Source: Hormiphora californensis (Eukaryota; Animalia; Ctenophora). From it: a stretch of DNA of 64,000 nt. Made by a program: the position numbers and the translations under genes. This document shows, piece after piece, positions 39,901-42,900 of this stretch (positions are counted from its first letter, which is position 1; the number at the start of each line of letters is the position of its first letter). The notes under the pieces were generated by a model. The model did no database searches, had not been told where the DNA came from, and saw only the letters and a program-made list of their open reading frames with translations. The DNA lies in assembly GCA_020137815.1 (NCBI GenBank), contig CM035357.1, positions 6,448,001-6,512,000 on the forward strand, read 5' to 3'.

Positions 39901-42900
39901 GTCGTATTCATTCATAGTTCGACACAATCTGTTCCAACTCGCTTAATCTTATGTACCACAATTGATTAGTCTCTCTCATCTCTCTCGCTCTATCTCTCTC
40001 GCTCTCTCCCTCGCTACTCTCTCTCTCTCTCTCTCTCTCTCCTTCTCATCTCTCTCTCATCTCTCTTCTTCTTCTCGTCTCTCTCTTCTCTCTCTATCTT
40101 CTTCTCTGCTGTACTCTCTTTATTTCTTTCTTTTGGTTTAGTGCTGTATGTGGGTGGGGGAAATGTAGAAGTATACTTTCGAGATTGTTGAGGGTTATCT
40201 TAGCTAAAATCGTGTACTCAACTTTGTTTCTCTCATCCCTCCCTTCGCCCCTGTTTGCTTTCTCTCTCCCCTCCCCTCTGTTTGATGGTCTGGAATCTTC
40301 CTCTTACACTCCATCGCTTTATTACTTTTTGAGAGGGAGAGAGAGAGAAGGGGAGAGAGAGGAGTGGGTGTGCTTGCAGTGTATGTTAATATTGAAAGTA
40401 TACATTCTCGTTGCCGTTCTCAAGTGATCACAATACTGCTACTGCTCTTCACCCGATTCATACCAGACCAATATAGCATTTTTGTGGCCTCATTACTCAA
40501 TCACTATAACCCAGCAAACTGTAATTATTCTTAGACTATCATTACAACACAACGGAATAAGACACTTTATTTATTATTCTTCTTCTCTTCCTTTGGCCCC
40601 CTAATTTTGTATAGTTAATTTATCCAGCCAGTCCGCACTCAGTTTGGTCCCTCTATTTCTGACATTCTTCTCTTTTTCTTCAGACAAAGACGAAAATGGA
40701 ATGTCCCCAATTACATGGTGAGTGTTATATATATATGAGAGCTTTCTGGCTCTGCATAAATTTGCAACATTATCAATAAAGAATATTAGAACATTTAAGT
40801 TGAAATCAATAAAATGCTTTCCCTGGCCCTGGAACATATTTCCAGCACAATCTGAATCTGCAAAAATATTAAAATCTGTATATGAACAGTTTTATCCCTA
40901 AACTTGTCTCTGTGGAATTGACCTCCTCCTGTGTAAGACAATGTTACCAGGTGGTTCCCTTGCTATACCCTACTATAACCCATACCTATCGTTCGGCTAA
41001 CCCATAAGACGTCTCGTCTTCCCTCTCTGCCTTCCCTCTCTCTAGTCTCGCCCGCTCCATTTCTAGCCTGTCCCATACTACTGTATGTTTTCTGTTGGTC
41101 CCAGCTGCATTGATCCTCTAAATCACGAATCCCACCCTCTATTCAGTAATCGACTTCATTTTTGTGATTTACCTTTGTATCAGTGGTGTACAATTAGAGC
41201 TGTTTTGTAATCGTTCACTAGCAAGACTTGCATATTTGTAGCCTCCGATTGTAATTTTAGGATCCCAAATGTAACTACTTTTTCGGGCCTTTTATTAAAA
41301 TCAAATCAATTGATTATGTGAATGTACACCATTTTGATATTGTAATCTATCTCTAGAGACCTGTACCACATGATGTCGTTTGTGTCCACGTGATTGGGGG
41401 AAATGACTCTCCTACTGTGTGTGTGTGATAGTTGTTTGTGTTCTCTTTGTGTGTGCCCTATAAAATGTATAAAGTTTGTTTAGATATTTTTGCAATTACA
41501 AAATAAAATATACAATTTGCTTTATTGATCAGTATTGCTATATATACAATATCATCTGCTCCCACTATGGATACTCTTGATTGCCTAACGTCTCACTTTT
41601 TAGTGGGCACCACCACATCTGGAAAGTGACTGTCACACCACCGGCCCAAACAACACCTGATTCCACTTCCGCGAGGTTGTATTCCACTTTTCCAGGATAA
41701 GACTTCCTTTAGAGGTTCATAAGTCTGTTTGTTTTTGTTTATAAAGGAGCACCAAGTATCACCCACACTTCCCACCATGCATGCTGTAATCTTACCCGGA
41801 TTTTTGTTCGTCAAATACTATTCCTCCTCTCTCTCAGGAGCATTCGGTGATGTCGTGTAGCAATGCTAAATGAACTGGCAAAGAAGACGCATATCCCCGA
41901 ACATAGTATCCCCCTATGAATCGAGGCCTACGAGGAACAGACGAGCAGAGATAACTGATATTGGGGAAACACAAATCTGTTATCATGTCCCTTCTAGGTG
42001 AGTCATGGTTATCATGGAGGGTACTGTTATCATTTTAGGTTACGTACAGTGGGTCAATATTTCGTTACTGTTAAAATCTCTTCCCCCCCCCCTCCAAACT
42101 TAGCTATACAATAATGTTCATTTTGCTGTTCATGTCTAATCATAATGGATATTTCCATCGTAATTTTATGGAGGTCGGAGGGTGTATGTTGCAGGGGATT
42201 CTTGGTAAAATAAACGATTCTCGAATTCAATGAATTCAGCATTTTGATCTTCAGAAACGTAAGAATTCATTGCATATGGGTTCCGTGGAACTACCAGATC
42301 GAGACTGTAATTATGCGTCGTTTGACAATATTTTGTGTATAATTGTCTGTAACTTTATCCTTTCCACATACAAACACACTGTTTCACACCGCGTTGGTTA
42401 CCACGTTGTTACCACTGTCTACCTCTCTCGTCGTGCTTGAACTAGGACATGGATCGTCACCAGGTAGTCCGCCGACTTTTTAATTATCCTGGAGAGAAGA
42501 GTCCTTCTGGAGCTGTTCGCGCTAACTGTTTTCCTCCATCCCGATCTTTTATGAGCATAGCTGAGGGTAAGCTCCACCGAAGAGAGGATACTCGGGCAAC
42601 AAAATGCTGTTAACCATTTCCGCCGCGACGAAGGGAATCCCTGGCTAAGAAAACCTTACAACCCAATTTTGGTGAGTCATGTGTGGTGATTCACCATCGG
42701 CATGCATCCGGGAGGAGGGTCTGCTTAGAAATCCCACATGCCCTATAAACTCGTGCGTTAGGGTAGGGAACATGAAAGAGAGGCTTCCTCACCCTCTCAG
42801 CTCGCCAACCACGATAACACACCCCGTATTTTAGCTAATACACCCTCTCTCCCCCTCAACCCTCTCCCTCTTTGATCAGGTTAAGTGTTCCCTGTACAAA

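Follow-up and report, generated by a model that had tools for sequence, protein, structure and literature searches.

An exactly intronless version of an ORP9/10/11-type gene alongside its intron-bearing version in one ctenophore sample, probably a precise loss of an old intron

The gene and its 484-nt intron

The window analysed here is a 64,000-nt stretch of contig CM035357.1 of Hormiphora californensis (assembly GCA_020137815.1, positions 6,448,001 to 6,512,000); coordinates below are counted from its first letter, and the genes, exons and introns described lie on the + strand. An ORP9/10/11-type oxysterol-binding-protein gene with PH and OSBP domains was delineated at about 7435..24959 by a tblastn exon chain to the Mnemiopsis leidyi protein P0011, an open 3′ gene model and Pfam. 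This polished, intron-bearing version is referred to as copy 1. Its spliced frame contains the OSBP domain (PF01237), and P0011, the best named relative, is 95% identical to it across exon B.

The intron of interest occupies 484 nt (20949..21432). It is a spliceosomal GT-AG intron of phase 1 with the ends GTAAGA...TTCCAG and a 4-nt boundary microhomology (G|GTA), and it is missing from one version of the gene, as described below. On its 5′ side lies exon B (129 nt; 20820..20948), placed by the gene model and found with identical borders in the ctenophore gene calls P0007-P0009, and on its 3′ side exon C (108 nt; 21433..21540), likewise placed by the gene model. Removal of the intron gives the open frame ...MSIAEG/SSPEER..., as in spliced relatives; the proteins P0011 and P0012 and the locus L001 run straight through the site, and the conserved frame is thus restored. 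No change to the protein is predicted where the two exons meet.

Both neighbouring introns are kept by both versions of the gene. The downstream one (196 nt; 21541..21736) was assigned by the gene model and the copy comparison. The upstream one (420 nt; 20400..20819) differs between versions in its first ~90 nt, donor included, and both of its forms occur among contigs of sample S1 (X1 record 1 with the joint at 41999-42091; X3 records 1 and 2). Its start is replaced between versions (20400-20490 vs 41998-42090), with the donor GTACTG in one and GTGAGT in the other; contigs of sample S2 carry the donor of the second copy's type. Elsewhere in copy 1, open frames that lie between exons 13 and A and have no match in the Mnemiopsis protein (14647-15216, 15272-15703 and 17116-17409) may be alternative exons, and a 1.57-kb element consisting almost entirely of long inverted repeats (22380-23945) sits within a 1,759-nt intron in both copies.

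Nature of the second copy

Copy alignment, tblastn and exon indels define an error-rich duplicate of the gene at 37795..57441 (copy 2, + strand). It corresponds to copy 1 from about 16332 onward, starting mid-gene without the 5′ half and finishing in a 34-bp satellite. Its identity to copy 1 is ~85% and its differences are dominated by indels: across the 14.8 kb that could be aligned, 12,826 positions match and 654 are mismatched, with a further 444 insertions and 470 deletions of one base each, and of the 112 indels counted in 1,204 nt of exon, 107 shift the frame. Against this background, the absence of the 484-nt intron is the sole deletion longer than 23 nt in the aligned 14.8 kb (our script reported it as two pieces, of 456 and 23 nt, separated by a chance match). 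Exons B and C abut at 42545..42600 (+ strand), with the join at ~42566/42567, and the initial annotation had placed both the intron and this join correctly. The other seven of the eight introns in the duplicated part are present at about their copy-1 length. A processed retrocopy, which the initial annotation had already discounted, is rejected: it needs all introns missing and an insertion elsewhere, but seven of eight are kept here and the flanks are collinear over ~15 kb.

Copy 2 likely represents one long read of the second haplotype, left unpolished and put in tandem by the assembly. One of its errors could be seen directly, since an X3 contig shows the exact spliced junction and the extra A of copy 2 at that point is therefore a read error. 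At the same time, copy 2 is more than a noisy rendering of copy 1. The ~90 nt at the start of the upstream intron and much of the intron at 21860-22063 differ in kind, and the copy-2 forms of both occur in S1 contigs (X1 records 1 and 5). All five alternative SNPs of X3 record 3 agree with copy 2 letters. Since S1 contigs contain these copy-2 intron versions and the five SNPs match, copy 2 likely comes from the other haplotype. S1 contigs carry copy 1 letters at 13 of 37 listed copy-2 differences, a count read from alignments that shift near indels.

The strongly diverged intron just mentioned (21860-22063 vs about 43001-43211) is a further difference between the versions, and its copy-2 form is among the S1 contigs. 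Two stretches are unique to copy 2, one at about 50400-51000 (a 408-nt insertion) and one at 55196-55758. Both fall in its least accurate part and may be read junk or haplotype insertions.

Around the intron site, copy 2 shares letters with S2 at 20584, 20860, 20863 and 20869 and with copy 1 at 20531, 20851, 20926 and 20932, so that the three versions (copy 1, copy 2 and S2) look about equally distant from one another. Given this, the letters provide no date for the loss and no tie to the allele bearing the tandem array. A candidate reading in which the intronless haplotype is closest to copy 1, suggested by X3 record 3 having no differences after 20623, was dropped because this record is a mosaic.

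Intron-bearing and intronless forms in public sequencing runs

The run search listed 9 public sequencing runs, 7 of which contained the stretch. Seven of the nine were examined (X4 and X9 were left out), in the form of contigs assembled from the runs. X1, X2 and X3 all come from one sample, S1, which is perhaps the source of the window's own assembly, and they do not represent independent animals. They are marked 'DNA?', that is, genomic DNA by guess, and contig depth is a coarse measure.

X1 and X2 each yielded one 540-letter contig that spans the intronless junction. Letters 1-532 of this contig are collinear with copy 2 at 42103-42652, with the left side aligned in pieces; the matching ends in copy 1 are 20506-21520, which corresponds to 1,015 nt, or 531 nt once the intron is subtracted. 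As the contig reaches back 314 nt into the upstream intron, it does not represent a fully spliced cDNA. In X3, the contigs aligned to copy 1 form a fork at position 20951. One branch, record 4 (depth 39.8), goes into the intron with 0 differences, and the other, record 5 (depth 36.9), enters exon C. The latter follows exon B to 20948, passes through the shared GTA and continues from the fourth base of exon C, where 30 of the 30 loose letters shown match, giving an exact in-frame junction. Record 5 has 30 letters left of the fork, under our 31-letter bridging rule, and the longer X1 and X2 contigs carry that weight.

The independent support for the intronless junction that the initial annotation had named as a check is thus present in contigs of all three S1 runs, which are guessed to be DNA. 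These contigs, together with the near-equal X3 depth, support its proposal of a real presence/absence difference as opposed to a deletion in a single read.

Sample S2 gave a different picture. In X6 the intron could be followed for 33 nt, to 20981, after which a different body begins; its next 30 letters resemble the lead-in to the array and hold one array-like word only. In X5 the acceptor TCCAG precedes exon C at a depth of 305. Because the S2 intron body departs from that of copy 1, at least two different intron bodies exist. No intronless contig was found among the S2 contigs examined, and contigs cannot prove absence; of the two samples of organism A examined, the intronless form was seen in one (S1), with only intron-bearing forms in S2. 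The RNA run X7, of which a small share was examined, contained an exon A-B join, none across the B-C junction, and one unrelated 36-letter piece. For X8 (organism B), 0 pieces matched, which is no proof of absence.

The intron site in other ctenophores and in metagenome loci

Gene calls on genomic contigs were informative about the age of the intron. P0007 is identical to the Mnemiopsis protein P0011 over 44 residues, and P0008 and P0009 are identical to P0012 over 44. All three begin at the first codon of exon B and break at the Gly of the intron site, beyond which 2 of 17, 1 of 18 and 1 of 18 residues match, respectively. This break at the same Gly in three of three ctenophore-like gene calls was read from translated proteins, not from DNA. 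The G-K of P0008 and P0009 equals read-through of a phase-1 GTAAG donor and mirrors the window's own G|GT AAG; P0007 shows G-R, and a donor one codon later is compatible with it at the protein level. As P0011 and P0012 are only 74% identical, two other ctenophore lineages likely share the intron. Other ctenophore genes of this family, to which the initial annotation had pointed for comparison, thus have a break at the same position at the level of protein.

The best 80 of 147 metagenome loci included no ctenophore genomic locus (L001 is spliced), and by a crude pattern rule none of these 80 is broken at the ctenophore site. The same rule placed a GT 11 nt upstream in 54 of them and read-through in 24, with 2 unclassified. 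The intron common in ORP9/10/11 genes elsewhere (54 of the 80 loci; L007-L080) thus lies 11 nt upstream of the ctenophore site, in the region of window position 20938, which may reflect old intron sliding or an independent origin.

From these comparisons the intron looks old and its position ctenophore-specific. The likely presence, in two further ctenophore lineages, of an intron at this codon points to an old intron in the window and to the intronless version as the derived state. Based on the protein gene calls and the second sample, we infer that this version is likely a loss and not a gain.

Repeats within the intron

As the initial annotation had described, the intron of copy 1 contains a 15-mer array and a MITE. 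The array is perfect (20993..21218, + strand; 15.1 copies, 100% matches), with 2.5 further copies at 21372-21409, and it begins beyond position 20981, where the S2 contig leaves copy 1. The MITE-like element (21224..21368, no strand assigned) has a 20-nt perfect inverted repeat at 21234-21253 / 21348-21367. With ~275 nt separating it from the donor and 64 nt from the acceptor, it supplies neither splice site, and it has relatives in the window at 1372-1441 (82%) and 2105-2247 (73%).

The array is likely a recent expansion inside the old intron and a late addition to one intron body; its late arrival is suggested by the existence of at least two bodies and by the single array-like word in 30 letters of the S2 form. 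Array and MITE are later passengers of the old intron. The initial view that the intron looks young is not supported, given the 73-82% similarity of the MITE to its relatives, the outgroup intron at the same codon and the different S2 body. Nor does the GGTA at the boundaries hold up as a target duplication. Boundary microhomology of at least 4 nt, reaching 7 nt, occurs in 8 of the 17 measured introns of the gene (a few 5′ introns lie outside the count), and we therefore take GGTA to be ordinary splice-site context.

Origin of the intronless version

We consider it quite probable that this gene occurs in two versions in the DNA of one sample, with the intron and exactly without it, likely as two alleles, and that the short version likely arose when an old intron was precisely lost, probably through repair from spliced RNA or its cDNA. 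The allelic part of this reading draws on the raw-read profile of copy 2 and on the X3 depths of 36.9 vs 39.8. Heterozygosity, as proposed in the initial annotation, would account for both forms being present in S1 at near-equal depth, but fixed paralogs would show the same near-equality. The assembly does place copy 2 in tandem, beside a satellite able to mediate duplication, as expected if it were a true partial duplicate that had lost the intron, and the 1:1 depth would also suit such a paralog. Yet copy 2 has the error profile of a raw read, its extra letter at the junction is shown by the contigs to be unreal, and it starts mid-gene. Moreover, no intronless contig is among the S2 contigs examined, and the deep exon C contig of S2 opens with the acceptor, bearing in mind that contigs cannot prove absence. 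A paralogous origin thus appears quite improbable. It is barely conceivable that the junction is an artefact, whether from a consensus error or from a deletion in a single long read. Copy 2 is indeed error-rich and the intron is able to fold on itself, but the intronless form stands in the own contigs of three S1 runs, at an X3 depth like that of the intron allele, an argument that holds if the runs are genomic DNA.

The direction of change was the other point on which readings could differ, the initial annotation having proposed either a recent intron gain or a precise loss. In the case of a gain, an Introner-like or break-repair insertion with target duplication would have created the intron on copy 1, and the intronless state would be ancestral. 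The young perfect array and the MITE making up most of the intron, and the GGTA at both of its ends, would suit such an event, and in Daphnia it is common for gains to occur in parallel at a single site (PMC4202315). The same-codon intron in two other ctenophore lineages and the second intron body in S2 speak against it, as do the position of the MITE away from the intron ends, its divergence from its relatives and the ordinary extent of the microhomology. We regard a gain as very improbable; the precise loss fits.

Possible routes of intron loss

For a loss from the intron-bearing state, we lean slightly towards RNA- or cDNA-templated repair as the mechanism. In this scheme a break in the intron would be repaired from the spliced transcript or its cDNA, removing the intron exactly. 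A short repair tract, reaching no further than the flanking exons of 129 and 108 nt, would take out this one intron only. The hairpin-prone MITE and the array may speculatively have invited the break, if already in place. Given a loss, the same heterozygous exact deletion may instead have arisen by microhomology-mediated end-joining, the two G|GTA words pairing without any RNA template, which we hold to be plausible though rather doubtful.

The evidence cuts both ways. The borders do offer a 4-nt microhomology, but among the 16 other introns measured, 7 equal or exceed it. The exact deletion is only one of 547 possible deletions with at least 4 nt of microhomology touching the intron, and one of 206 that spare splicing; against this it can be said that selection purges frameshifting deletions and that exact ones get noticed. 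No partial deletion longer than 23 nt was present in the aligned 14.8 kb. That a single intron was lost while its neighbours, 129 and 108 nt away, were kept counts for end-joining and against the templated route, and the hairpin-forming MITE and array within the intron would also serve end-joining. PMC3698931 favours microhomology over reverse transcription in animals, reporting lost introns of worms and flies to be enriched for junction microhomology. Those introns were short, however (medians 51 and 62 nt), a comparison in which the length of the present intron at the time of loss may have differed. One event cannot decide between the two mechanisms.

A broader proposal is that this ctenophore carries many exact, heterozygous, inherited whole-intron deletions produced by high-rate germline RNA-templated break repair. 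We think this unlikely. If true, one exact loss among 8 introns between two haplotypes would be typical, and the reads of one animal would yield a genome-wide polarised catalogue deciding between RNA-templated and microhomology models.

Comparison with known cases

Presence/absence of an intron within a species is a known kind of variation that is rare in animals, and the present case adds a real and exact loss that is likely heterozygous. Intron-loss polymorphisms in animals are described for Drosophila 4f-rnp, Drosophila teissieri jingwei and tick calreticulin (PMC5154033). As in these, versions of one gene with and without the intron occur within a species, and one tick had both. The present case differs from the arthropod ones, of which that of the tick was established by PCR sequencing, in coming from a ctenophore, in having a junction that assembled contigs show to be exact, in being polarised by an outgroup and in including a second body of the intron.

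Daphnia pulex shows segregating presence/absence, with retrocopies excluded, as here, by neighbouring introns, but its changes are dominated by gains (120 gains, 7 losses; PMC4202315), whereas an old intron was likely lost here. In the fungus Neurospora tetrasperma losses were also polarised by outgroups; 26 were found among 9,495 sites in 92 strains and ascribed to a process involving reverse-transcribed mRNA (PMC4317165), a population-scale survey in contrast to our single animal locus in one sample.

With respect to mechanism, RNA-templated break repair leaves whole-intron deletions in human cells, and about half of 113 tumour cases lie outside consecutive clusters (PMC12065846). These resemble our case in that an intron of some hundred nt is removed exactly. 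They are somatic, whereas in our sample a depth close to 1:1 suggests that the allele is inherited, for which the same pathway is a proposal. The microhomology-associated losses of PMC3698931 are similar in being single and exact with matching border bases; they were inferred between species and concern short introns, and the microhomology at our locus is no higher than in the introns that the gene has kept.

No ctenophore case of intron presence/absence was found in the literature searched, consisting mostly of papers available without subscription. The ctenophore genome paper PMC8527503 reports high indel heterozygosity in introns, and its eight passages with the word 'intron' do not mention whole-intron loss; the portion of PMC11230420 covered held nothing further on within-species intron presence/absence.

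How introns are lost exactly, from an RNA or cDNA template or by microhomology end-joining, is still debated, mainly on old between-species comparisons. Animal losses that are still polymorphic are rare in the literature found, amounting to a few arthropod loci and the 7 in Daphnia. At the locus described here, one sample contains both forms, and an alternative intron allele and an outgroup are available as well, all within a phylum for which we found no precedent. It also illustrates how true variation can come to light through an error of assembly, here a tandemly placed raw read from the other haplotype, and it suggests a cheap test, namely to screen the existing S1 reads for exact exon-exon junctions in genomic DNA.

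Other repeats in the window

Beyond the gene copies, the window contains a second, smaller duplicated block of 90-95% identity, in which 58921-59837 corresponds to 61334-61944 and 60741-61307 to 61942-62508; it is likely another haplotype overlap. Inserted into a 34-bp satellite at 31019-37680 is an element of 1,284 nt (36053-37336) whose terminal inverted repeats measure ~280 nt.
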